Below, in pieces: positions 292 to 10,578 of a stretch of DNA of 64,000 bases. This stretch comes from a virus. Its lineage: Duplodnaviria > Caudoviricetes. The notes beneath the pieces were generated by a model. It did not search any database. It was not told the origin of the DNA and saw only the letters and a program-made list of their open reading frames with translations. How positions within the stretch are numbered: position 1 is the first letter of the stretch; each line of letters starts with the position of its first letter. The position numbers were made by a program, and so were the translations under genes. The stretch covers positions 1 to 64,000 of IMG/VR virus record IMGVR_UViG_3300027864_000205. One strand, 5' to 3'.

Positions 292-455
292 ATGCTGCTA
301 TGTAATTGTTGCAGTTACTGTAGTTTCCAGATTGACTGTGTAGGCAGTGCAATCGATTGCTAGACTTTTGCTTGATTTTTGCTTGACTCAAGCCACTACT
401 AATTGAAACTTACTGCCACTTGCCACCATTAACTATACTTCCTACATTATTACGC

Positions 456-484
456 ATTATACATCAGGAAGCAATTCACGTCAA
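456..484 (-). promoter_or_regulatory. Sigma-A promoter probably driving the tRNA
   Basis: TTGACG-N17-TATAAT on the minus strand. Confidence 0.7.
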
Positions 485-535
485 CAGTCAAATCTCCTCC
501 ACTGTCAAGTTGCAAATTGTATAATTAAGTATGAC

Positions 536-612
536 AAAAACGCCCCCTGGCGCACAGGGCTTTTTGTTATTAACTCGCCACCAGCAGCTACTCATAATTT
601 CGAGTAACTGCT
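536..612 (-). terminator. Two hairpins downstream of the 618-875 gene
   Basis: agcagctactc / gagtaactgct stem (582-612), plus a GC stem followed by TTTTT on the minus strand (536-566). Confidence 0.55.
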
Positions 613-617
613 ACTTT

Positions 618-875
618 TTATTCTGCAAGTGATTTTGCCTTACTTGGTTTCGGAAAATCACTCTCTTGGAATAGAATCTTCTGCCCGTTGGGAAGCTTTA
701 TGGATAGTTCTCCACCAACAAATGCAGCTATCAGTGCTAAATCTCTTGCGGAAAAGCTACCAAGATGAAGCTTGTTTCTCATAACTTGCGGATTTTTATT
801 GAAATATCCTGCAAGCTCATTAACATTTGTATTTGCAAGGCTGAGTATTGCCTTAACATTGTCCGATACACCCAT
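618..875 (-). CDS. Small HTH/XRE-like DNA-binding protein
   Basis: AAAGGA SD before ATG 875; pattern VKAILSLANTNVNELAGYFNKNPQVMRNKL...SFSARDLALIA resembles an HTH. Confidence 0.65.
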   Translation of the reverse strand: MGVSDNVKAILSLANTNVNELAGYFNKNPQVMRNKLHLGSFSARDLALIAAFVGGELSIKLPNGQKILFQESDFPKPSKAKSLAE

Positions 876-898
876 TAAAACCACGTCCTTTCACATTT

Positions 899-927
899 AT
901 TATAACGTTTAAAGTTATATTAGTCAA
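899..927 (-). promoter_or_regulatory. Sigma-A promoter of the 618-875 gene, with a palindromic operator between -35 and -10
   Basis: TTGACT-N17-TATAAT; TATAAC-N7-GTTATA at 901-919. Confidence 0.75.
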
Positions 928-1056
928 GAAATGAATTATAAAATAGCGAATCATGTTGCACATAGATAAATCTATAAAGCAGTCATAAATCACCAGTATA
1001 TAGCACTATGCGCGAAGAACTGCGTAATGTAACAGAGAAAGGTAAGTGGCGAATTG

Positions 1057-1075
1057 TATAACGCAATAAGTTATA
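1057..1075. promoter_or_regulatory. Operator copy TATAAC-N7-GTTATA
   Basis: tataac gcaataa gttata, same arms as 901-919. Confidence 0.65.
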
Positions 1076-1114
1076 TATTGTACTAAAAAAGTTATAAAAG
1101 TAATCAAAAAAGTG

Positions 1115-1159
1115 TTGACATGGGTAAATCGATATGTTAATATAACGATACAAGTTACT
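1115..1159 (+). promoter_or_regulatory. Rightward sigma-A promoter with an operator over the start site
   Basis: TTGACA(1115-1120)-N17-TAATAT with TGn extension; TATAAC-N7-GTTAC at 1141-1158. Confidence 0.7.
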
Positions 1160-1193
1160 TTTGTAACTAAAAACGTGCAGGAGGAATCCGAAA

Positions 1194-1661
1194 ATGACTA
1201 GAGAAGAATTTGTAGCATTATCCAAAGTAGAGGTAACATACTCGCATTATACGAATCATATTGAACCTAGCTATATGACGCAAGATTCCGCTAAGGACGA
1301 ATTTGTGGTTCAGTGGCTAAAAGACCACAAGCGGTACCTTGTCAAAGCACATTCCATTGATATTGAAAATTCAAATGTAGCTTCAGTATTGGCGGAGGCA
1401 AAAGCTAAAGACCTCGTGAAATTACAGATAGAAAGAGTAGACCTTATCCAAAAATTAACGGATGTCGAACAGATGTACAGTGCAGTCCTAGAGGAGCTTA
1501 GCAATATGCAGAAAGAATGTGTGTCATGGAAAACAGATTTTCTTGCAGCACAAGAGCAAGCCGAACAGGTCGAACCGCTAAAACAGCAGATAGCTGACCT
1601 TGAAAACGAACTTATAAAAATGAAAGCAAGAATGTTTGATATGTTGGATAAATCAGCATAA
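1194..1661 (+). CDS. Hypothetical protein with C-terminal coiled coil
   Basis: Strong AGGAGG SD; 155 aa; heptad pattern in C-terminal half. Confidence 0.8.
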   Translation: MTREEFVALSKVEVTYSHYTNHIEPSYMTQDSAKDEFVVQWLKDHKRYLVKAHSIDIENSNVASVLAEAKAKDLVKLQIERVDLIQKLTDVEQMYSAVLEELSNMQKECVSWKTDFLAAQEQAEQVEPLKQQIADLENELIKMKARMFDMLDKSA

Positions 1662-1677
1662 AGGAAGGTGTGACGTT

Positions 1678-1869
1678 ATGAGCAATCTGGAAAGACTTAG
1701 AAGAGCGAAAAGCCACGTTGCTAAGTTAACTGTTGAAGAAGAAAATGCAAAAACAGCAGACGAAGTTGAACTATATAAACATTTGCAAGTCCTCGCCAAA
1801 GAAAGAGTTCACATAATTGAAAAAGAAATTGAACTTGATGACCTAATCGCTACGTTTTTAAACAACTAA
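1678..1869 (+). CDS. Small hypothetical helical protein
   Basis: AAGGAAGGTG SD before ATG 1678. Confidence 0.7.
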   Translation: MSNLERLRRAKSHVAKLTVEEENAKTADEVELYKHLQVLAKERVHIIEKEIELDDLIATFLNN

Positions 1870-1901
1870 AAAAGCAAATGAAAGAAAGGTCAATAAAATA
1901 T

Positions 1902-2024
1902 ATGCAAAATCCCGATTGCGGAATATGCGAAGCTACAGCGGAAGAATACAAGCGCAAAATAAAGGATATGCAAGCAGAAATAATTGCTCTTGATAATGCA
2001 ATTGCCGATTTAGAAGGCAGGTAA
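1902..2024 (+). CDS. 40-aa hypothetical protein (MQNPDCGICEATAEEYKRKIKDMQAEIIALDNAIADLEGR)
   Basis: Manual translation; GAAAGGT SD; fills the gap in the operon; CxxC plus coiled coil. Confidence 0.55.
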   Translation: MQNPDCGICEATAEEYKRKIKDMQAEIIALDNAIADLEGR

Positions 2025-2055
2025 CATCTATCATAGCAGAGAGGAGGAATACATA

Positions 2056-2478
2056 ATGCCACACTATCTACAAGAATCTATCATAAATTTTGTCAGCGCA
2101 GAACATCAAAATTTCTACGAAACTCAAATGCTGACAAAATCAAAAGACAGTTACAACAGGGTGCTGTTCTACACGCTCGGTATGTGCGAGAACACACGTC
2201 GAAACATCAACAGACTCTACGATGCCACAAAAAGATGTATATTATCAGGAGCTATTAACGAGGGATGGCAGACAAGCACAAGCATGAAGGTTACACGATT
2301 AGCATTTAACCTCTTCACGGATTCGGTGTCAGTAGTACGTGAAGAGAGCAGCAAATCAGAAATATATACTGAATGTAGCCTATACAGTGTTTCCGATATA
2401 TTTTGTTGTGAGTATGCGCCGTATTTTGTCGAAGCTATACGATTACGCTACCCCGAATACATGAGAGGAGATTCATAA
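2056..2478 (+). CDS. DUF6075-like protein
   Basis: Motifs LFYTLGMCENTRRNINRLYD and GWQTSTSMKVTRLAFNLF recalled from that family; GAGGAGG SD. Confidence 0.75.
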   Translation: MPHYLQESIINFVSAEHQNFYETQMLTKSKDSYNRVLFYTLGMCENTRRNINRLYDATKRCILSGAINEGWQTSTSMKVTRLAFNLFTDSVSVVREESSKSEIYTECSLYSVSDIFCCEYAPYFVEAIRLRYPEYMRGDS

Positions 2479-2479
2479 A

Positions 2480-3166
2480 ATGAAAAACGAACAACATGCG
2501 GAGCAATCCGCGCTAAAAAAAGTAGAAGCAGCACATGCAGGACAAGTATATGTCGGGCGTACACAGCGTTCAAAACCAGTGCCAATGCACGGCTCGAAGA
2601 TTGAACACGACACTACTATAACTCTACAAATCTCTACAGGCAGTCATTCACGGTCATGTGGCACCGACCGCTATTTCCCGGAGAAACTCATGGCAGAAGT
2701 GGAAATGACCCAAACCCAGTTTGCCGAAATGATAACATCCTTTAACCAAGGCAATGGAACGCCATGCACACTCCGCTTCATTGATGGCAAGAGGATAGAG
2801 TCAAACCCTAAGCGTCCTGACCCTCTGTCCACTCTCGAAGCGGAATCAGGGAATGCCGACACCCGAGCAATCGACTCCCTCCGCTCCCTCCTTATAACCC
2901 TTGGAGTGACCGCAGAAAAGAAGAGGCCGCTCAGCGTCTCATCGCAACGCGAAATTATCTCAAAACTTTTGACAATACTAAGTAATCTTGAAAGTGACAG
3001 GGAGTTTTACAAAGAGCAGGCTTGCAGAGATATTGAAAGCATGGTGCAAGAAGCAAAGGCAACCGTTGAAGCGCACCTTGCACTCCGTTTTCAGCAAATA
3101 GCCATAGCCACAAGTGAAAGCCAACAACTCATTCCCTCGCAAGAAATCGGAGATACCCAAACATAA
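2480..3166 (+). CDS. Conserved phage hypothetical protein
   Basis: 228-aa ORF directly coupled to the upstream gene; EVEMTQTQFAEMITSFNQGNGTPCTL motif resembles phage hypothetical proteins. Confidence 0.75.
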   Translation: MKNEQHAEQSALKKVEAAHAGQVYVGRTQRSKPVPMHGSKIEHDTTITLQISTGSHSRSCGTDRYFPEKLMAEVEMTQTQFAEMITSFNQGNGTPCTLRFIDGKRIESNPKRPDPLSTLEAESGNADTRAIDSLRSLLITLGVTAEKKRPLSVSSQREIISKLLTILSNLESDREFYKEQACRDIESMVQEAKATVEAHLALRFQQIAIATSESQQLIPSQEIGDTQT

Positions 3167-3221
3167 TTAAACGAACGTACAGCGACGGAGGCGAAAAACC
3201 GCCCGGCTGAAAGGAGATATT

Positions 3222-3707
3222 ATGTCTAAAAAAGAACTCATAGCACTCATAATGGAAAGCACAGGCCAATACAAAAAGACGCACCTCGTAAAGAAAATGA
3301 AGTCTGAACTTGAAACTATCGCAATGCCTTTTATGCCATCGGACGCTACAGTAGCCTTCAGCGAACAGCCGCCCCCCGCACCTATTGCGACACTCAAAGA
3401 GAAAAAGAAAGCACCGCAGGCTTCGGAACGGGCTGTAAACGAAAAAGAGCAGCTAATGCTTGCAACCATACCTAAGTTGCCGGACTTCGAAGGGACTATG
3501 TCGGTGATGGACGGAAAAGGATTTTTAGCAAAGGTCGAGGAAATTCACGGCATACCCCAGAGTACATCAAGGGCACTCATGGTATCGTTGATGAAAAAGC
3601 AATATTACGAAATAATCGGCAAGAAATCTGGACAAAAGAAAACAACAATTAAACTACAACCAAAAGGCATAAAGTACCTCGCAGAAAACAATCTGATAGT
3701 AGCTTGA
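3222..3707 (+). CDS. Hypothetical protein, possible C-terminal winged helix
   Basis: AAAGGAG SD; C-terminal SRALMVSLMKKQYYEI...IKLQPKGIKYL pattern. Confidence 0.7.
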   Translation: MSKKELIALIMESTGQYKKTHLVKKMKSELETIAMPFMPSDATVAFSEQPPPAPIATLKEKKKAPQASERAVNEKEQLMLATIPKLPDFEGTMSVMDGKGFLAKVEEIHGIPQSTSRALMVSLMKKQYYEIIGKKSGQKKTTIKLQPKGIKYLAENNLIVA

Positions 3708-3723
3708 CAGTGTGCAGGTACAT

Positions 3724-3772
3724 AAAAGCAGCGAGAAGCACCTCGGTTAAAGGTGAGGCTCCCGCTGCTTTT
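3724..3772. terminator. Bidirectional terminator between convergent genes
   Basis: aaaagcagcg...cgctgctttt stem with A/T tails on both sides. Confidence 0.75.
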
Positions 3773-3798
3773 ACACACAGTTCCAGCGTGCCGAAATT

Positions 3799-4047
3799 TT
3801 AAGTAATCGGCTTCCCGCTCTTGGTTTTGGTGCGTAGCTTTTCATTTTTTGTGCGCACGATAATGTCCGAGACATCGCAGTCCAACGCTTCACAGATTAG
3901 GTCTAAGTGGTCTAGGTTAATACGTTCTGCGAGTTCGTTGTAAAGTTCGCCGATAGTTGAGGGACGGATATCGGTTGCACGAGCCAGATCAGCTTGCGTC
4001 CATCGCTTTTCGCCTAAGCGTGTGGACAGTAAAACTTGAATCGCCAT
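3799..4047 (-). CDS. XRE/Cro-C1 family HTH regulator
   Basis: WTQADLARATDIRPSTIGELYN...LDHLDLICEALDC; AAAGGAG SD. Confidence 0.92.
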   Translation of the reverse strand: MAIQVLLSTRLGEKRWTQADLARATDIRPSTIGELYNELAERINLDHLDLICEALDCDVSDIIVRTKNEKLRTKTKSGKPIT

Positions 4048-4110
4048 AGAAACGTGCTCCTTTCCTAAAATCTACCACAAACTGCAGCGGTATGGTGATT
4101 TTGTGATATA

Positions 4111-4127
4111 ATCACGGAATACGTTAT
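4111..4127. promoter_or_regulatory. Operator-like site upstream of the XRE gene
   Basis: ATCACG-gaata-CGTTAT, one mismatch to the ATAACG-N5-CGTTAT palindrome. Confidence 0.55.
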
Positions 4128-4182
4128 TTATCATAGAGCTTTTTAGTAGAATGTCCCCTAAATTTAGTTATTTGCAAACAAA

Positions 4183-4225
4183 AAAGCCCTCATGCTGAAG
4201 CGTATACGCTCAGCATGAGGGCTTT
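4183..4225 (-). terminator. Terminator after endolysin
   Basis: 16-bp arms aaagccctcatgctga / tcagcatgagggcttt, with a T-run on the minus strand. Confidence 0.85.
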
Positions 4226-4245
4226 CCCTGCTGTAAATATTGATT

Positions 4246-5574
4246 TTATCTTGTGTGGTCGAGAGCTATCCACCCTCCATCAAAACGGCCGCCTGGGTCA
4301 CTGATGCGACCCCAGAGCCTTGCGCCTAACCCAGTAGATTCTTCGACAATCCTGACTGTGTCTCCATTACGCAGAGAGCTATTCGTTGCAAACATGGTAG
4401 CAAAAGTGGTGCTGGGGCCCTTGCGTACATTCAGCGACGATTGTACATTTACGGTCACTATACGTCCTTTTGGCGTTTCTTGGGTAGGGGTCGGCGCAGG
4501 TGCATTAACTATGCGCGTTAGGCGGAGAGCAATCCATCTGCCAGTTAGGTCAGGGAAGTTAGCAGAATCGTTAGCAATACGCCCCCATATGCTCGCCGAG
4601 TTGCCATCTTGACCCATCATTTCCATGTCGATTTGCAATCGTCGAGGCGGTCTTACTTCTCCTACAGTGCTTGTGTCTGTGCCTGCGCCTGTACGGATAT
4701 TGACAACACTGCCGGTTACTTCCACGGTACGTACATCCACAGGAGTGCCGGGAAGTGTTATATCTGGCAGTTCGGTTAGCAGAGCCCCCCATGTAAGAGG
4801 TCCGACAACGCCATCAATTGCCAACTGACGGCCGTTTACATCGACATTTAACCTTTGGAAATTCCTGACTGCGGTATCTGTAAGTGGTCCGAACACTCCA
4901 TCGACTCTTAGTTGGGGATTTGCTCCGTGCATATTAAGCAAGGCTTGCAGTTCGACAATCGCATCTGTGTTTGGGTTGCCTTGTCTTAATGTGGGATTTA
5001 CTGTGGTCTGTTGTGTAGGCGGCACAGTACTGCTGTTAAGTCGCTCAACCGCAGCTATATAGGCTTCATGCGCTGCTGCCCGCGAACGTAGACCGCGAGC
5101 GATAAAAGTTGCTGCCCTGCGGTTAGCTTCTGGTCTTGCAAGTCGATTATTACCCGCAGGCAATACGGTTGCGCCTGTAGTGCCACCCGAGGAGTTGCGT
5201 AGGTAGCCGCACACATGGCCGCCGTCTGGCGTATTGAAAGGTCCGTTGTTGCTGCGATTGTGAAATCCCGGTCCGGGATTTCCATTGCCTATGAAAGACC
5301 CATGCATGAATCCGTGTATGCCCATTGGTACCCATAAATCACCAAAAATGACGAGCATAGGTCTCGCAAGCCAACTCAACTGACCGAAAGCTCTTCTGAA
5401 GGCGGCCATATCATCAGGTGTCGCAGGGGTCATGTCGTAGTGGCATCCACGAGGACCGGCAAATGCCATGTTAAATTCTATGCCGGTAAGCTCGTCTCGC
5501 ACCCTTTGTATGGAGTTTCCCGGTCCAATAAGCCGACCAAATTCTGCATTGGTGAGCATTTCCACTCTAACCAT
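4246..5574 (-). CDS. Putative endolysin: atypical N-terminal His/Cys domain + PG_binding_1 + two SH3b-like domains
   Basis: Follows holin; VELQALLN...DGVFGPLTDTAVRNFQ...DGVVGPLTW peptidoglycan-binding motif; VNIRTGAGT and LNVRKGPST SH3-like repeats; AAAGGGG SD at 5574. Confidence 0.8.
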   Translation of the reverse strand: MVRVEMLTNAEFGRLIGPGNSIQRVRDELTGIEFNMAFAGPRGCHYDMTPATPDDMAAFRRAFGQLSWLARPMLVIFGDLWVPMGIHGFMHGSFIGNGNPGPGFHNRSNNGPFNTPDGGHVCGYLRNSSGGTTGATVLPAGNNRLARPEANRRAATFIARGLRSRAAAHEAYIAAVERLNSSTVPPTQQTTVNPTLRQGNPNTDAIVELQALLNMHGANPQLRVDGVFGPLTDTAVRNFQRLNVDVNGRQLAIDGVVGPLTWGALLTELPDITLPGTPVDVRTVEVTGSVVNIRTGAGTDTSTVGEVRPPRRLQIDMEMMGQDGNSASIWGRIANDSANFPDLTGRWIALRLTRIVNAPAPTPTQETPKGRIVTVNVQSSLNVRKGPSTTFATMFATNSSLRNGDTVRIVEESTGLGARLWGRISDPGGRFDGGWIALDHTR

Positions 5575-5857
5575 GTGCTTTTCCCCCTTTATCTGCTTCT
5601 TTGAAACGTCTCTCAATTTCTTTAATCGTGCGGGTACACCACTGCAGGTCAGCTTCGACTTTCGCATACTGTGACGCTCCATCGACATAACTTTCTCCAA
5701 AAATGTATGTGACTATATCGACTCCTGCCACAATTAGGCTCACTATCTTCACTGACGGCTCTTCCGACGAGAAAAATGCTACCAACGCCATCAGGAATAC
5801 AGATAGCATGGCAAGAAATTTACGACTCGTCCACTTTCTTTTCCAATCAATTTTCAT
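5567..5857 (-). CDS. Phage holin
   Basis: DWKRKWTSRKF N-terminus, two hydrophobic segments, GESYVD; overlaps the lysin start. Confidence 0.8.
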   Translation of the reverse strand: MKIDWKRKWTSRKFLAMLSVFLMALVAFFSSEEPSVKIVSLIVAGVDIVTYIFGESYVDGASQYAKVEADLQWCTRTIKEIERRFKEADKGGKAHG

Positions 5858-6411
5858 TACGACCTCTCTTTCTCTACACATTGTAGAACCCGTCGCATAT
5901 TATCCTTACACCGGACACAATGCTCTAACACCTTATCCATTGACCCTTTGTTGTCGCTAAAGCCGTTGCTCACAAGACCAGTAATCGTTCCAGTGATTCG
6001 GTCAAGAGAGTTGCGGGAATCACTAAATCCAGCCTTTATTAGTTCTGTTATTTGTGCAGTTGATTCTTCTTTGGCTTTCTCGCTACGTTCAATCATATTC
6101 ATAAAACGCTCTGTAGCTTGAGTGTTTTGGGTGATTACTTCGAGTACCTGTTTTTGATTGTCGCTGTACCTCTCTTGCCGCATATTCTTTGCGGCAATTT
6201 CTCGCTCACTGCGTTCTCTTTCGGATTCTTCTCGCGATTTTTGCGCATCGGCTTCTGCTTTGCGGTCATCCTTATTGGTCTTTAGTTTATAGCCAAGATA
6301 TGCAATAAACGCAAAAAGAGCTATAACCGCAAGAACTATCAGGACTCTTGCGACATCGCTATCCATTGTATAGACCGCTTCAGATACTACGTGATAAATT
6401 TGGTCAGGCAT
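5857..6411 (-). CDS. Membrane-anchored coiled-coil lysis-cassette protein
   Basis: Single TM VLIVLAVIALFAFIAYLGY followed by a charged coiled coil; adjacent to holin. Confidence 0.7.
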   Translation of the reverse strand: MPDQIYHVVSEAVYTMDSDVARVLIVLAVIALFAFIAYLGYKLKTNKDDRKAEADAQKSREESERERSEREIAAKNMRQERYSDNQKQVLEVITQNTQATERFMNMIERSEKAKEESTAQITELIKAGFSDSRNSLDRITGTITGLVSNGFSDNKGSMDKVLEHCVRCKDNMRRVLQCVEKERS

Positions 6412-6856
6412 TGTTCTTTCCCCTTTCAGTTTGCGTAAGCTTAATGCATGGCACGACCTTTCCATGTACATTTTGCAACATTATTACTTTGTCTTTTTTC
6501 TGCCCATAGATAAAGATTTTGTCAAATGCTGCACTGCACGGCTCGTAGTCGTCTTTATCCAGCACACCCTTGCCCATAGCGGACTCTTTTTGGATAATGC
6601 ATTTGTACTTCCAGTATTCGCACCATTTGACAGAATCTATCGCACCAGACCGAGGATAATTCTTGTCCTTGATGATGTTTATGACTACCCCTCCATCTGA
6701 AAGCTCCGCAACTGCGCCTAATTGCTCGCTGACAGCGTGTGCGGACTCGTATGCGTCATACAGTAAAGGTGCAGTGATTGAAAGCCTAATTGCAGGGCCT
6801 TCTATAGTCTGCGCAGATGCACTAAGCACAACTTGATATTTGATTTCTTTTTCCAT
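6404..6856 (-). CDS. Hypothetical protein
   Basis: 150-aa ORF with GAGAGGA SD; stop overlaps the next start. Confidence 0.6.
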   Translation of the reverse strand: MEKEIKYQVVLSASAQTIEGPAIRLSITAPLLYDAYESAHAVSEQLGAVAELSDGGVVINIIKDKNYPRSGAIDSVKWCEYWKYKCIIQKESAMGKGVLDKDDYEPCSAAFDKIFIYGQKKDKVIMLQNVHGKVVPCIKLTQTERGKNNA

Positions 6857-6923
6857 TATGTATCCTCTCTATTGGGTGTTATTATGTTGCCCTTCCTCCT
6901 TTGCAGGCTTTCTGTAGCGCGAA

Positions 6924-6952
6924 AAGACAGCCCCATTTAAAAGGGCTGTCTT
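6924..6952 (-). terminator. Terminator after RT
   Basis: aagacagccc / gggctgtctt stem with a T-run on the minus strand. Confidence 0.75.
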
Positions 6953-6966
6953 GATTATCAAACTGG

Positions 6967-8064
6967 TTATATTATGTCGTCGAGGTCGTGCCGCAGCACG
7001 GCGAAGTCTTCGAGGATCTTATCTCGCAAAGCGTCATTTGTGCAATGTGAGAGCATGCCGAGATAGCTCTGTAGTACTCTCTGCGCTTTTTCATGCGAAA
7101 TCTTGCCTTTCTCAAATTTGTGCTTTACCCCGGCAAGGTTGCGTTTAATCCGCAAAGTGGTGGATTTTCTGATTTGGAGTTTATTGCGCCATATCCTATA
7201 CCCTGCAAACTCAATACCGAATGAAGCCTTCCTGACAGATGTCTTTTTGTTAAGGTTCAACCCCAACTCGCTAAACAGAAAATCCGCCACATAGTCACGG
7301 ATTGCATGCAAATCTGCCTTGCTTGTACCAAGAACGAGCATATCGTCCATGTACCGCATATAGTGCTGCACTTTCAGTTCGTGCTTTACGTACTGGTCAA
7401 GCTCGTTCATTATGATATTTGCCAGCAACTGTGATACGAGGTTTCCAACAGGCATCCCGATATTCCAAAGTCGCTCAGTAGTTTCTACGTCAATAACTTC
7501 AAGAGGAAAGCCGAAAGGAGTTTGGTCATTTCTTATGATTGTTTCGAAGAGCCACAGCAACTTCTTGTCTTTTATTTTCCTGCTAATTACCCGCATGAGA
7601 ACGTCGTGCGGTACACGGAAAAAGAATTTTGCAATATCCATCTTCAGGACATAGAGGTCGTCCGACGACTTATTGTGATGCATCCGCAGCCAGTACTGGA
7701 GCTTTTGAGCAGCAAGGAGTGAACCTTTGCCCTTGACACTGCCGTAACTTGTATCAATGAATATGGGCTCGTACAGCGGGTACACATTGCGATATATCGC
7801 CCATTGCACGATTCTATCACGGAATGGCAGTATCAGTATAAGCCGTTTTTTGGGGATTGTTGCGATTTTCTCTCTGTATTGTCCGACCTGATATGACTGG
7901 TATATCAAGTCATTTTGCAAACTGATGAGCCCCTCTTCAAGCCTATCGCCAAACCTTAGAACTTCTGATCTCATTTTCTTGTCTTTGCGAGCGTTTTCGA
8001 ACGATATAAGCAGATTCTCATAATCGAATATCTTTGGGTATAGATTCCGGAATGTATTCATCAT
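6967..8064 (-). CDS. DGR reverse transcriptase
   Basis: LKMDIAKFF, GMPVGNLVSQ (DGR-type [IVL]GxxxSQ) and RYMDD; about 365 aa with no maturase or endonuclease domain. Confidence 0.95.
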   Translation of the reverse strand: MMNTFRNLYPKIFDYENLLISFENARKDKKMRSEVLRFGDRLEEGLISLQNDLIYQSYQVGQYREKIATIPKKRLILILPFRDRIVQWAIYRNVYPLYEPIFIDTSYGSVKGKGSLLAAQKLQYWLRMHHNKSSDDLYVLKMDIAKFFFRVPHDVLMRVISRKIKDKKLLWLFETIIRNDQTPFGFPLEVIDVETTERLWNIGMPVGNLVSQLLANIIMNELDQYVKHELKVQHYMRYMDDMLVLGTSKADLHAIRDYVADFLFSELGLNLNKKTSVRKASFGIEFAGYRIWRNKLQIRKSTTLRIKRNLAGVKHKFEKGKISHEKAQRVLQSYLGMLSHCTNDALRDKILEDFAVLRHDLDDII

Positions 8065-8257
8065 CGCACCTCCAATAATCGGTGTTGTGCTTTGCACGCT
8101 TTCTACTCCATGTGATTAGTTACTCACAGCATACACAACTAAGTTTTTTTCTCCACCAGGTCTGCAAAGCGGACGGGTGGTGCGGAAGCAAGTCCCTTTA
8201 ACTTCCTTCTGTACTGGACGGCAACCCGCAAGTTGCCGACTGCTAACTACGAAGGTA

Positions 8258-8370
8258 AAGCGCCCCGAGCGCCGATGTTCGAGTTCACGTTCCACGGATA
8301 AACGTTCAGATTCACGGCGCGAGAGCCGGCGTTCATCCCGTTGTTCCAATCGCCGCCGGCAATGAGGGCA
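8258..8370 (-). repeat. DGR template repeat (TR)
   Basis: 113-bp match to 8906-9018; 11 of 12 mismatches are at TR adenines; AAC-rich; lies between avd and RT. Confidence 0.95.
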
Positions 8371-8378
8371 ATAATGAC

Positions 8379-8735
8379 TTACTCCCCCTTATGGTTAACA
8401 GGTGCAGATTGTGATTTAATCCACCCGCCTACCATCCTTCCAATTTCGTCCACCAAGCTCGACCAGTGCTTGTACTTTTTTATCGGCAGGAACCCACGTC
8501 TGTGTGAAAGCCTGATGAACGATTGCAAAGTTGCATTCTCAATGTCTAACTCCTGTAGAGTGGTTTTTTTGTAGTATTTCTTTTGTCCGGCGATAGTAAG
8601 CCTAAGCATTTGCTGCATACAAAGGTCTATGTTTCTTACAAGCGACTGCTTAGACTTTCTCGGATATTGTTCAAGTGCAATATCTGCATACACCATCATG
8701 TCCTCTATTTTTTGTCGGATTTTTAGAACTTCGAT
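8379..8735 (-). CDS. avd: DGR accessory variability determinant (Avd, four-helix bundle)
   Basis: LQELDIENATLQSFIRLSHRRGFL...WSSLVDEIGRMVGGWIK; position between target and TR; start codon uncertain (see findings). Confidence 0.9.
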   Translation of the reverse strand: MEVLKIRQKIEDMMVYADIALEQYPRKSKQSLVRNIDLCMQQMLRLTIAGQKKYYKKTTLQELDIENATLQSFIRLSHRRGFLPIKKYKHWSSLVDEIGRMVGGWIKSQSAPVNHKGE

Positions 8736-8815
8736 TGTGACACACCCCTCTCTCCAAAAGAAACACATGCGCATTATACATTAGTTTGCAATTTTCTATG
8801 TGAAACCGTTATAAA

Positions 8816-8832
8816 ATAACGAAATGCGTTAT
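8816..8832. promoter_or_regulatory. Palindromic operator upstream of the avd-TR-RT promoter (-10 TATAAT at 8773-8778, minus strand)
   Basis: ATAACG-aaatg-CGTTAT, extended by AAA/TTT flanks. Confidence 0.6.
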
Positions 8833-8848
8833 TTTGAAAATTTGCGCT

Positions 8849-8872
8849 ATAGCCGCACTATCGTGCGGCTAT
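8849..8872 (-). promoter_or_regulatory. DGR target-recognition hairpin/cruciform downstream of VR
   Basis: 10-bp stem atagccgcac / gtgcggctat with a GATA (GRNA-type) loop on the sense strand, 20 nt after the target stop. Confidence 0.85.
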
Positions 8873-8891
8873 CAGAACGCAGTTTTTCAGA

Positions 8892-10151
8892 TTACAGGGA
8901 TTCACAAGCGCCCCGAGCGCCGACGTTCGAGCCCACGTGCCACGGAAAACCGCTCAGATGCACGGCGCGAGAGCCGGCGTACATCCCGTTGTCCCAAGCG
9001 CCGCCGGCAAGGAGGGCACTAATGGACTGGTCAAAATACTGGTGGATATTACCATTATTTGGATTGCCTCCGGGTGCGGTTTCACCTAGCGGAGAAACTC
9101 TATCCCACGCCCATGCGCCTTGTGCTGAGTTCGGGCTATTGTCGCCCCTTGTGGTCGGACCATGCGCAGTGCCATTGGTTACCGTCTGCCCTCTGCGACT
9201 ACCGTCGCTCGAAGCGAAGGTGAACGGTGTCGGATTTGTCGTGCCGGCAAGTACGCGTCCACTTGCCATCGTCAGCAAATCATCATTCCACTCCCACACA
9301 TTGCCTGTGGTATCAACACAGCCAATCGCAGATACAGCCCTTGCTACGCTGCCACATACGGCTCTTGCAGTATTTGCAGGAGCTGCGCTCCTTGTGTGTG
9401 CGTTATCGTTGTTCTCAGCAAGGCCTTGTGGGGCACCGAACGCAGCCTGTAGCCATTCTGCATGACTCGGCATCCTTTTATCGCTCATGAGATATCTGTC
9501 TACAAATGTGTACCAGTTATAACCTTCTGTGCCGGTTATAGGTAGCATACCGTGAGAAGATTGCACGCCGCCATTGCCATCATCGGAGGAGAGATAAATA
9601 TCTATCCACAAGCCATGTCCGGAGTAAACCATGCTCTCGGGTTCACATCTTGGTCTGTGCTTTAACGTCCACACACTGCGCGGCACAATTCCCATGTATA
9701 CATTAGCTTCCCAGCCAGTGCCGAATACAATGCCTTGTGTGTTTATTGGGCGTGTCCGAGAATCGACACGACGAGCCATTCCAAAGTGGAATCCACCAAT
9801 TTTGCGACTATTTGCAGCGTTGAAGCCTGCGGGAAATGTTGTATTGAGAGATATACGGTAAGCTTCTTCTATTGTGCCATCATCGCAGATATACACATAG
9901 TAGTCTCTTCCTAAGAGGAAAGCAGAACCCGAGTCTAAGTTTGCGATTCCAAGCGAATCGGCTCTTGTTTTGTAGATGTTTTCACCCACTGATATGACAG
10001 TACCCTCAATTACAGCCAAAGAATTGTCGCCGTCTGTTGTCAGGTATTCGTTGGTATGTGCAACCACATCAGATGATGCAGCTATTTTTGCTGTAGTTAT
10101 CAAAGCCAATGGGTCTAGTCGAGTCGGGTCGTCAATCATAAGTTTAGGCAT
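8892..10151 (-). CDS. DGR target, Mtd-like receptor-binding/tail protein with C-type-lectin (FGE-like) C-terminus
   Basis: GNVWEW and GGxW...GARG CLec-type motifs; VR at C-terminus; sits at the distal end of the tail module. Confidence 0.88.
   Translation of the reverse strand: MPKLMIDDPTRLDPLALITTAKIAASSDVVAHTNEYLTTDGDNSLAVIEGTVISVGENIYKTRADSLGIANLDSGSAFLLGRDYYVYICDDGTIEEAYRISLNTTFPAGFNAANSRKIGGFHFGMARRVDSRTRPINTQGIVFGTGWEANVYMGIVPRSVWTLKHRPRCEPESMVYSGHGLWIDIYLSSDDGNGGVQSSHGMLPITGTEGYNWYTFVDRYLMSDKRMPSHAEWLQAAFGAPQGLAENNDNAHTRSAAPANTARAVCGSVARAVSAIGCVDTTGNVWEWNDDLLTMASGRVLAGTTNPTPFTFASSDGSRRGQTVTNGTAHGPTTRGDNSPNSAQGAWAWDRVSPLGETAPGGNPNNGNIHQYFDQSISALLAGGAWDNGMYAGSRAVHLSGFPWHVGSNVGARGACESL
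8906..9018 (-). repeat. DGR variable repeat (VR) at the C-terminus of the target gene
   Basis: Encodes ALLAGGAWDNGMYAGSRAVHLSGFPWHVGSNVGARGA; differs from TR mainly at adenines. Confidence 0.95.
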
Positions 10152-10578
10152 TTTTAAGCACCCCCAAAATAAAGTTTATTTCGTCAATCTCGAAACCATT
10201 TTGTTTTAGCCAGTTATCCTGATTGAATATTGATAGCGTTTCCCTATCGTTAGGAGCTTTGCTGAGTGTTACTACAGTCTCGGAGTACTGTGTTCCTTCG
10301 CTTTCCTCTTGCTCGGGATTTTCTGTATGCGACACGGACTTAACGGTCAATCCGTCCGCAGTGACATCGCCTTCCTTTACCTCGGGGAAGTATCTGGTCG
10401 TGACCACTGCCCTATCTGCCAATATAATTGGTACCGTGCGGTACTGTTTGCCTAGCAAAGACCTGATAAGTTCTTCAAGTTCTGCTATTTCGGTCTTGTC
10501 TAACTCCCCTCGTTGTGCCATGCCTACAAGGTTTGTCATGTCCAGGCGGGTCTGCAATATTTGTGGTATACCTCTCAT
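10144..10578 (-). CDS. Hypothetical tail-region protein
   Basis: AAGGAGG SD; stop overlaps the DGR target start. Confidence 0.75.
   Translation of the reverse strand: MRGIPQILQTRLDMTNLVGMAQRGELDKTEIAELEELIRSLLGKQYRTVPIILADRAVVTTRYFPEVKEGDVTADGLTVKSVSHTENPEQEESEGTQYSETVVTLSKAPNDRETLSIFNQDNWLKQNGFEIDEINFILGVLKNA

Follow-up and report, generated by a model that had tools for sequence, protein, structure and literature searches.

The first 64,000 nucleotides (hereafter the window) of the 73,928-base virus record IMGVR_UViG_3300027864_000205 (Caudoviricetes) carry a diversity-generating retroelement (DGR) on the minus strand, with the target gene, variable repeat (VR), hairpin, palindrome, -10 hexamer, avd gene, template repeat (TR) and reverse transcriptase (RT) gene following one another in this order. 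The window also encodes two small helix-turn-helix (HTH) proteins: a Cro/C1-type regulator, here called the XRE protein (3799-4047), and HTH88 (618-875), which is part of an accessory switch. The palindrome ATAACG-N5-(C/A)GTTAT lies ahead of the XRE gene and the DGR genes and recurs three times within the switch. It is quite probable, as the comparison of homologous loci indicates, that this palindrome is the operator of the XRE protein, which would act on its own gene and on avd-TR-RT, most likely as an activator, and on the accessory switch as well.

Results

Five copies of the palindrome in the window

The features are collected in Table 1. All five copies of ATAACG-N5-(C/A)GTTAT are intergenic and lie exactly where an earlier note on this DNA had placed them; the promoter contexts it had described for O1, O3 and O_D were also located on the sequence. 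With at most one mismatch allowed, the window gave nine strand-hits, where 0.46 were expected, and this number was reached in 0 of 100 shuffles. Compared with ATAACG-N5-CGTTAT, four sites have 0-1 arm mismatches, and O3 has two. The note had further proposed a motif scan of the whole phage: in the complete record, no further 17-mer with fewer than two arm mismatches was found, and two 17-mers with two mismatches lie in coding regions.

Table 1. Positions of the genes, promoter elements and palindromes discussed in the text.
Feature	Position	Strand	Sequence or remarks
HTH88 gene	618..875	minus	85 aa; second small HTH protein, Cro/CI-type; accessory switch
Leftward promoter of HTH88 gene	899..927	minus	TTGACT-17-TATAAT, 11/12 matches
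O1	902-918		ATAACGTTTAAAGTTAT; occupies the leftward promoter's spacer and runs into its -10
O2	1058-1074		ATAACGCAATAAGTTAT; between the two divergent promoters
HTH88-type operator word	1100..1108	minus	TTTGATTAC; adjoins the rightward -35 on its upstream side; present once in the window
Rightward promoter of 1194-3707 operon	1115..1143	plus	TTGACA-17-TAATAT, 10/12 matches, with TG
O3	1142-1158		ATAACGATACAAGTTAC; covers the last part of the rightward promoter's -10 and its start site
H3-like half-site of O3	1162-1167		GTAACT; O3 region as a whole, 1142..1167
XRE regulator gene	3799..4047	minus	82 aa, Cro/C1-type HTH_26; proposed binder of the palindrome
Extended -10 of XRE promoter	4069..4077	minus	TGG-TAGATT, 36 nt after O_X; no -35 hexamer
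H3 of XRE promoter	4102..4107	minus	ATCACA, 3 nt after O_X; read from the sequence
O_X	4111-4127	minus	ATCACGGAATACGTTAT; minus-strand reading ATAACG-TATTC-CGTGAT; XRE gene's own promoter, centre at about -57
DGR reverse transcriptase gene	6967..8097	minus	Pfam RVT_1
TR	8258..8376	minus	repeat with VR
avd (bAvd)	8379..8774	minus	Pfam bAvd 5e-27; NCBIfam DivGenRetAVD 93.8 bits (cut-off 80)
-10 of avd-TR-RT promoter	8773..8778	minus	TATAAT, 37 nt after O_D; no -35
H3 of avd promoter	8807..8812	minus	ATAACG; consensus of relatives TTTcTaACAAA (67 DGR promoters)
O_D	8816-8832	minus	ATAACGAAATGCGTTAT; perfect ATAACG-N5-CGTTAT; avd-TR-RT promoter, centre at about -58
Target-recognition hairpin	8851..8870	minus	AGCCGCAC-GATA-GTGCGGCT; 8-bp stem, GRNA loop; apart from the operator
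DGR target gene	8892..10151	minus	Mtd-like, C-type lectin/FGE fold; Pfam mtd_2nd and FGE-sulfatase; stop codon at 8892
VR	8906-9024	minus	inside the target gene; repeat with TR

The XRE gene accompanies DGR cassettes in related loci

To compare homologous loci, we combined 14 IMG/VR loci bearing XRE homologues with the best 80 of 449 relatives (one genome per species), which gave 94 loci, many of them cut by contig ends; nearly all of the best 80 come from Oscillospiraceae or other Clostridia. An RT gene was found within the flank in 45 of the 94 loci, and 35 of the 94 bear, within 10 kb, a TR/VR pair whose differences fall nearly all at TR adenines. When both flanks were complete, a DGR lay no more than 10 kb away in roughly 60% of the loci; in one genome the distance to the XRE gene was 10.4 kb. 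The linkage was also seen from the other side: among the best 80 of the 339 viral loci matched by an Avd alignment, 16 had at least 8 kb of downstream flank, and 11 of these had an XRE gene 4-7.5 kb downstream of avd. The RT of the window is 38-45% identical to the RTs adjoining XRE homologues. Judged by these loci, the association of the XRE family with DGR cassettes is conserved among prophages from Oscillospiraceae and other Clostridia.

Not all linked DGRs are built alike. In a second class (L020, L021, L036, L049, L054, L058-L062, L065, L067, L082, L367 and L368), VR and TR are separated by about 230 nt without avd, and the RT is 25-28% identical to that of the window; the gap between VR and TR holds the same palindrome with the same 37-nt spacing to TATAAT. 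A third layout (avd-like gene, TR, RT, and VR downstream) is found in L016 and L035, which contain the closest XRE relatives of the window (66-78% identity).

In relatives, the XRE gene and the HTH88 homologue are often convergent and about 50-100 bp apart (L003, L006, L026, L031, L038, L049, L057, L063, L066, L070, L074, L076, L089, L090, L092 and L177-L198). In the window, both genes are on one strand, with the 2.5-kb rightward operon between them.

XRE and DGR genes share one type of promoter

The XRE operators were taken from anchored alignments, since choosing the best inverted repeat had mis-called several loci. The consensus of 57 non-identical XRE promoters reads ATAACG-N5-CGTTAT, TTTC, TAACAA, about 25 nt, TGTTAGAAT, a short leader, GGAG and ATG. 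The distance from the palindrome end to the -10 hexamer is 37 nt, there is no -35 consensus, and in most of the 94 loci the palindrome stands at -77 to -83 from the XRE start codon. The third half-site, H3, co-varies with H2 across the XRE loci.

In 67 non-identical DGR promoters, the palindrome comes after the post-VR hairpin (or hairpins) and the word ATTTTTGAAA. Of the 47 promoters that have TAnAAT, 37 show a distance of exactly 37 nt between the palindrome and the beginning of this hexamer. The DGR promoters have a good -10 and no -35, and the TG extension is mostly absent. The spacings in the window (36 nt for the XRE gene and 37 nt for avd) are like those of the relatives, so that the XRE and DGR promoters can be classed as a single type whose dyad lies near -58 and whose third half-site lies near -43. 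About 30 of 73 XRE promoters bear a further half-site just after the -10, partly co-varying with the operator class; a half-site over the start site is absent from the 67 DGR promoters. The TTGAAA before the palindrome was considered as a -35 and rejected, there being no -10 at 17 nt from it.

The operator is nearly exclusive to these two places. A scan in which each locus was searched with its own XRE operator turned up, in 16 loci, a single further copy within 20 kb that belonged to the DGR promoter region and stood a short way upstream of avd/RT or in the VR-TR interval. Five bacterial genomes (2.4-3.8 Mb) contain six perfect palindromes between them, each either at the promoter of an XRE gene or in the VR-TR interval of a DGR close by.

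The XRE protein and its predicted recognition code

The XRE protein matches Pfam HTH_26 at E 9e-18, and all its Pfam matches are HTH families; no NCBIfam family names it. Its AlphaFold model (predicted local distance difference test score 78.6) has five helices and CylR2-like terminal beta strands, and Foldseek aligned it to XRE-fold proteins with a probability of 1.00. In the fold ranking, the N-domain of SaPI2 Stl is first, VanUg second, CylR2 ninth and ClgR seventeenth, with the controller (C) proteins of restriction-modification (R-M) systems also near; the top PDB sequence match is VanUg (3tyr, E 2e-4). The protein thus has the fold of Cro/C1-type (XRE, HTH_26/HTH_3) DNA-binding proteins, and most members of its family have a palindrome in their own promoters, as is expected for autoregulation.

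The XRE and DGR operators of one locus resemble each other more than those of different loci: among 58 non-identical loci, they differ on average by 1.81 arm mismatches within a locus vs. 2.72 across loci (permutation p ≤ 2e-4). Several variants appear at both promoters of the same locus, namely CGTGAT halves in L125, ATATCG/CGATAT in L003, L004, L044 and L123, TTGATA-N5-TATCAA in L011 and TTCCG-N5-CGGAA in L121.

Moreover, the third base of the half-site changes in step with residue 30, with which the XRE recognition helix (IRP-S-TI) begins (permutation p = 1e-4). With Ser30 the half-site is TAAC (37 cases), with Ala30 it is TTAC (6/6), and with Asn30 it belongs to the TATC/TGAT class (about 12 of 14, mixed and near variants counted). 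Thr30, or the STIG variant found in the window's own subclade, goes with CGTGAT halves, and Ser-Gln with TTCCG in L121. In a FastTree phylogeny of the XRE proteins, the Ala/TTAC combination turns up at four or more separate places and Asn/TATC at five or more. Because residue 30 co-varies with the half-site base, the binder should be the XRE protein rather than another factor. Conservation, exclusivity and co-variation together lead us to regard 4111-4127 and 8816-8832 as XRE operators; the palindrome is very likely the binding site of the small XRE protein, placed ahead of its own gene and of the DGR genes.

These results bear on two claims of the earlier note. It would have given up its proposal if the 8816 site were not kept in related DGR prophages; the palindrome, or a co-varying variant of it, stands at both the XRE and DGR promoters in about 58 non-identical loci from viral contigs and bacterial genomes. 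It had also supposed that one of the two small HTH proteins autoregulates and controls the DGR. The co-variation of residue 30 and the paired operators point to the XRE protein in this role.

The same observations dispose of the idea that the palindromes arose by chance or are a generic feature of AT-rich promoters. A relaxed, promoter-embedded pattern, TTGACW-N3-ATAAC-N7-GTTATAAT, does match more than 120 unrelated metagenome contigs, of which one carries an XRE homologue and none an HTH88 homologue. The shuffle statistics, fixed positions, genome-wide exclusivity and co-variation have already refuted this idea, and we give it practically no credence.

The DGR cassette and the post-VR hairpin

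The cassette has the hallmarks of a DGR: an RT with an adenine-specific TR/VR pair, Avd, and a GC-rich hairpin with a GRNA loop after VR. The two repeats are 119 nt long and 89% identical, with 14 A-to-N differences in the aligned stretch and the remaining differences confined to a few added flanking bases. The hairpin starts 35 nt after the repeat, 1 nt beyond the 4-34 range of the published criteria (PMC6602519), which it otherwise fits, and comparable hairpins are present in relatives. As this canonical GRNA hairpin is separate, the 8816 palindrome was rejected as the DGR cruciform.

One might still take the 8816 palindrome for a cis element of retrohoming, such as a target boundary or a landing site for Avd or RT, given its position about 35 nt downstream of the hairpin flanking the initiation of mutagenic homing (IMH) site and its nearly fixed distance from VR. 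This is very improbable in view of the XRE genes, which are preceded by the same palindrome with the same 37-nt spacing and have no VR, TR or hairpin nearby. Besides, the palindrome co-varies with an XRE residue, and the GRNA hairpin stands apart from it.

The start of avd is unusual. A ribosome-binding site, GGAGAGAGGGG (8757-8747, minus strand), has no canonical start codon nearby, and the sole in-frame ATG (8774) overlaps the -10 TATAAT. Homologues of Avd start with MA(E/D)ELKILQK; opposite this start, the alignment has an ATC codon of the window, at 8735. Judged by this, the true start is likely near 8735, which suggests either a non-canonical start or deliberately weak translation. We also noted the word CTG(C/T)GT(T/A)CTG(A/G) between the stop codon of the target gene and the GRNA hairpin (8871-8881 in the window; kept in L006, L009, L011, L013, L084 and L094), and, in many relatives, a second hairpin with GCGAAGC or a GCGTAAGC mini-hairpin loop just before the operator.

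The accessory switch and its three palindromes

The region 618-1193 has two divergent promoters with several shared operators, as in a lambda-like immunity switch; a Cro-like antagonist beside an integrase was not found there, and the first rightward genes gave no HTH match. Since the record has its lysogeny module proper (CI-like repressor plus integrase) at 70-73.6 kb, we regard 618-1193 as an accessory switch. Its rightward operon (1194-3707) encodes a coiled-coil protein, two small proteins, a DUF6075 protein, a phrog_6452 protein and a 161-aa protein without assigned family.

HTH88 itself has no Pfam match. As a single query it gave zero matches in viral contigs and zero in metagenome contigs; a protein-homology search returned the identical protein on three contigs and one 57%-identical relative. 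In the HTH88 family, 10 of 13 members match Phage_CI_repr, and hhalign gives 94% for its relation to the XRE family; by this profile comparison, HTH88 is a distant homologue of the XRE family. Loci were scanned with a 5-sequence alignment, the 13-sequence alignment being too variable.

Which protein binds O1-O3? From centre to centre, neighbouring sites are 156 and 84 bp apart, each a whole number of helical turns, and all three have A in place of C as the inner base of one half. We lean towards the view that the XRE protein binds them, so that the accessory switch of this phage would have been rewired to the DGR regulator. Natural XRE operators tolerate A at the inner base (position 12), as seen in L037 and L084. 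O3 is accompanied by an H3-like half-site. On the minus strand (1026-1074), O2 leads into ACAATTCGC and then, after 26 nt, TGTTACATT, which resemble the XRE-promoter consensus, though one helical turn shorter. This O2-flanking sequence may be a remnant, or it may serve as a second promoter of the XRE type facing the HTH88 gene.

Alternatively, there could be two look-alike regulons, with the XRE protein binding 4111 and 8816 only, HTH88 binding O1-O3, and the switch unlinked to the DGR. About 60 other loci with HTH88 homologues have their own divergent promoter pair with 3-4 operator repeats, unlike the local XRE operator, and one of these repeats sits in the spacer of the homologue's own promoter, the place that in the window is taken by an XRE-type palindrome. 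The two families are distantly homologous and agree in arm and spacer geometry, and the C-to-A change common to O1-O3 would also suit a separate binder. However, homologues with the same recognition helix as HTH88, PQAMRNKL (L080/L185 and L181), use TTTGATTA(C/T) words, that is TTTGATTAY, not the palindrome; the window has a single such word, at 1100-1108, which is not significant alone. With this, the tolerance for A at the inner base and the XRE-like surroundings of O2 and O3, we hold two separate regulons to be rather less likely than not. As for the link between the accessory switch and the DGR drawn in the earlier note, the shared motif is there, in this phage only, the ~60 other HTH88 loci using different operators; no match to two ATAACG-N5-AGTTAT sites separated by a gap of 125-155 was found in viral contigs.

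At the left end of the record there is a tRNA-Ala(GGC) gene (216-291) and a gene (1-195) cut by the record's end; an integrase gene lies at the far right end (72457-73593), and a terminal repeat was looked for and not found. A megablast search of window positions 300-10300 against phage records returned zero matches.

Discussion

Activator or repressor

In this work, we obtained evidence for a regulator, the XRE protein, whose operator stands both at its own gene and at the mutagenesis genes of a DGR. Most probably, an XRE dimer would bind one copy of the palindrome at its own gene (4111-4127) and one at avd-TR-RT (8816-8832); the sole hint at a dimer is the two-fold symmetry of the site. Bound there, it would recruit RNA polymerase and thereby activate both its own gene and the DGR mutagenesis genes. 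We infer activation rather than repression because the dyad at -58 is clear of the core promoter and because the DGR promoters have no -35 and mostly no TG. The extra half-site just after the -10 of XRE promoters may add negative feedback on the regulator. At O1-O3, which overlap core promoter elements, the same protein would repress. The expression of the accessory genes and DGR mutagenesis would then depend on one regulator.

The same binder and regulon might instead be read with the XRE protein as a repressor that silences its own gene and the DGR, all five sites being negative. Most small Cro/CI-type phage proteins repress, as do the fold neighbours CylR2 and SinR; the extended -10 of XRE promoters may need no activator, and many of these promoters carry a further half-site over the start site. 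Tight silencing would also explain why many DGRs are transcriptionally silent in culture (10.1101/2024.11.15.621889). Nevertheless, a site at -58 spares the core promoter, the DGR promoters, without -35 and usually without TG, look activator-dependent, and the start-site half-site is absent from them. On balance, a repressor appears unlikely.

Several points weigh against the activator model or against parts of it. The extended -10 of XRE promoters might suffice unaided, which weakens the case for activation. In about 40% of the full-flank loci, a DGR is not found within 10 kb; in L016 and L035, the avd-like gene abuts the upstream gene and the intergenic operator is absent, so XRE linkage is not always accompanied by a DGR operator. 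The window's own XRE operator has one CGTGAT half, and the XRE protein must therefore tolerate both TAAC and TCAC. As to the recognition code, the permutation tests ignore kinship among loci, and the FastTree phylogeny was built on 70 residues with branch support unassessed. Finally, O1-O3 have no counterpart in any other locus, their assignment to the XRE protein being made by sequence likeness alone.

Taken in its fullest form, the activator model would make the XRE family the on-switch of DGR hypermutation in phages of gut Clostridia: a positively autoregulated activator with a Ser/Ala/Asn30 code for A, T or another base at half-site position 3, wired in this phage into the accessory switch. 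We put this forward tentatively. If it is true, positive feedback possibly makes the response switch-like, with mutagenesis occurring in bursts.

Significance for DGR control

An autoregulated HTH protein with palindromic operators is the ordinary part of this picture. For the conserved, co-varying coupling of an XRE operator to a DGR promoter, in contrast, we found no description in the searchable literature. A survey of DGR accessory genes lists avd, HRDC, MSL and CH1 only, and the words HTH, regulator and promoter are absent from it (PMC5758913); the XRE protein, with HTH Pfam matches only, fits none of these classes. According to myRT, HTH_XRE domains occasionally neighbour RT genes, with nothing further said on them. 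In a 2024 study of gut DGRs, activity was found to track avd/TR/RT transcript levels, and the signals and regulatory mechanisms of retrohoming were said to "await discovery" (10.1101/2024.11.15.621889).

Our analysis yields a candidate regulator family, operator, promoter and predicted specificity code for the control of DGRs. The module is carried by lysogens that can be cultivated (Flavonifractor porci, Bengtsoniella intestinalis, Agathobaculum desmolans and Anaerotruncus colihominis). It would give DGR annotation pipelines a fifth class of accessory gene and a promoter signature, and might offer a natural handle for turning engineered DGRs on and off.

Comparison with known systems

The DGR of the window closely resembles that of BPP-1 (mtd-avd-TR-brt): the order of the parts is the same, the target is Mtd-like and the accessory protein a bAvd, TR and VR differ in an A-specific manner, and a GC hairpin with a GRNA loop comes after VR. 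Neither for BPP-1 nor for any other DGR is a dedicated transcription factor or operator described in the searchable full-text literature.

In fold, the XRE protein is like VanUg, CylR2 and ClgR, which are small stand-alone regulators of the XRE type from Firmicutes and Actinobacteria. Their target genes (vancomycin resistance, cytolysin, clp) are unrelated, and its identity to them is only about 20-30%.

The R-M controller proteins C.AhdI, C.Esp1396I and C.BclI, also among the fold neighbours, have the XRE fold and about 80 aa, as the XRE protein does. C proteins recognise palindromic boxes that immediately precede a weak -35 in the promoter of their own gene. At low concentration they act as activators and at high concentration as repressors, and they time the synthesis of a linked, potentially harmful enzyme. 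In contrast to them, the XRE gene is linked to a DGR, and its operator is one 6-N5-6 palindrome with single half-sites, not two C-boxes. No R-M genes were found beside the inspected loci, the two palindromes of a C-box operator were not present, and by sequence the protein does not belong to the C proteins.

The 885-1193 region is reminiscent of the CI-controlled region of lambda and 434, in that three operator copies accompany a pair of divergent promoters of the sigma-70 type. CI is a repressor and also an activator, the latter at PRM from OR2. Unlike in lambda and 434, the rightward operon does not begin with a Cro-like gene, a CI-like repressor and an integrase are encoded elsewhere (70-73.6 kb), and far-off promoters at 4.1 and 8.8 kb carry the operator too.

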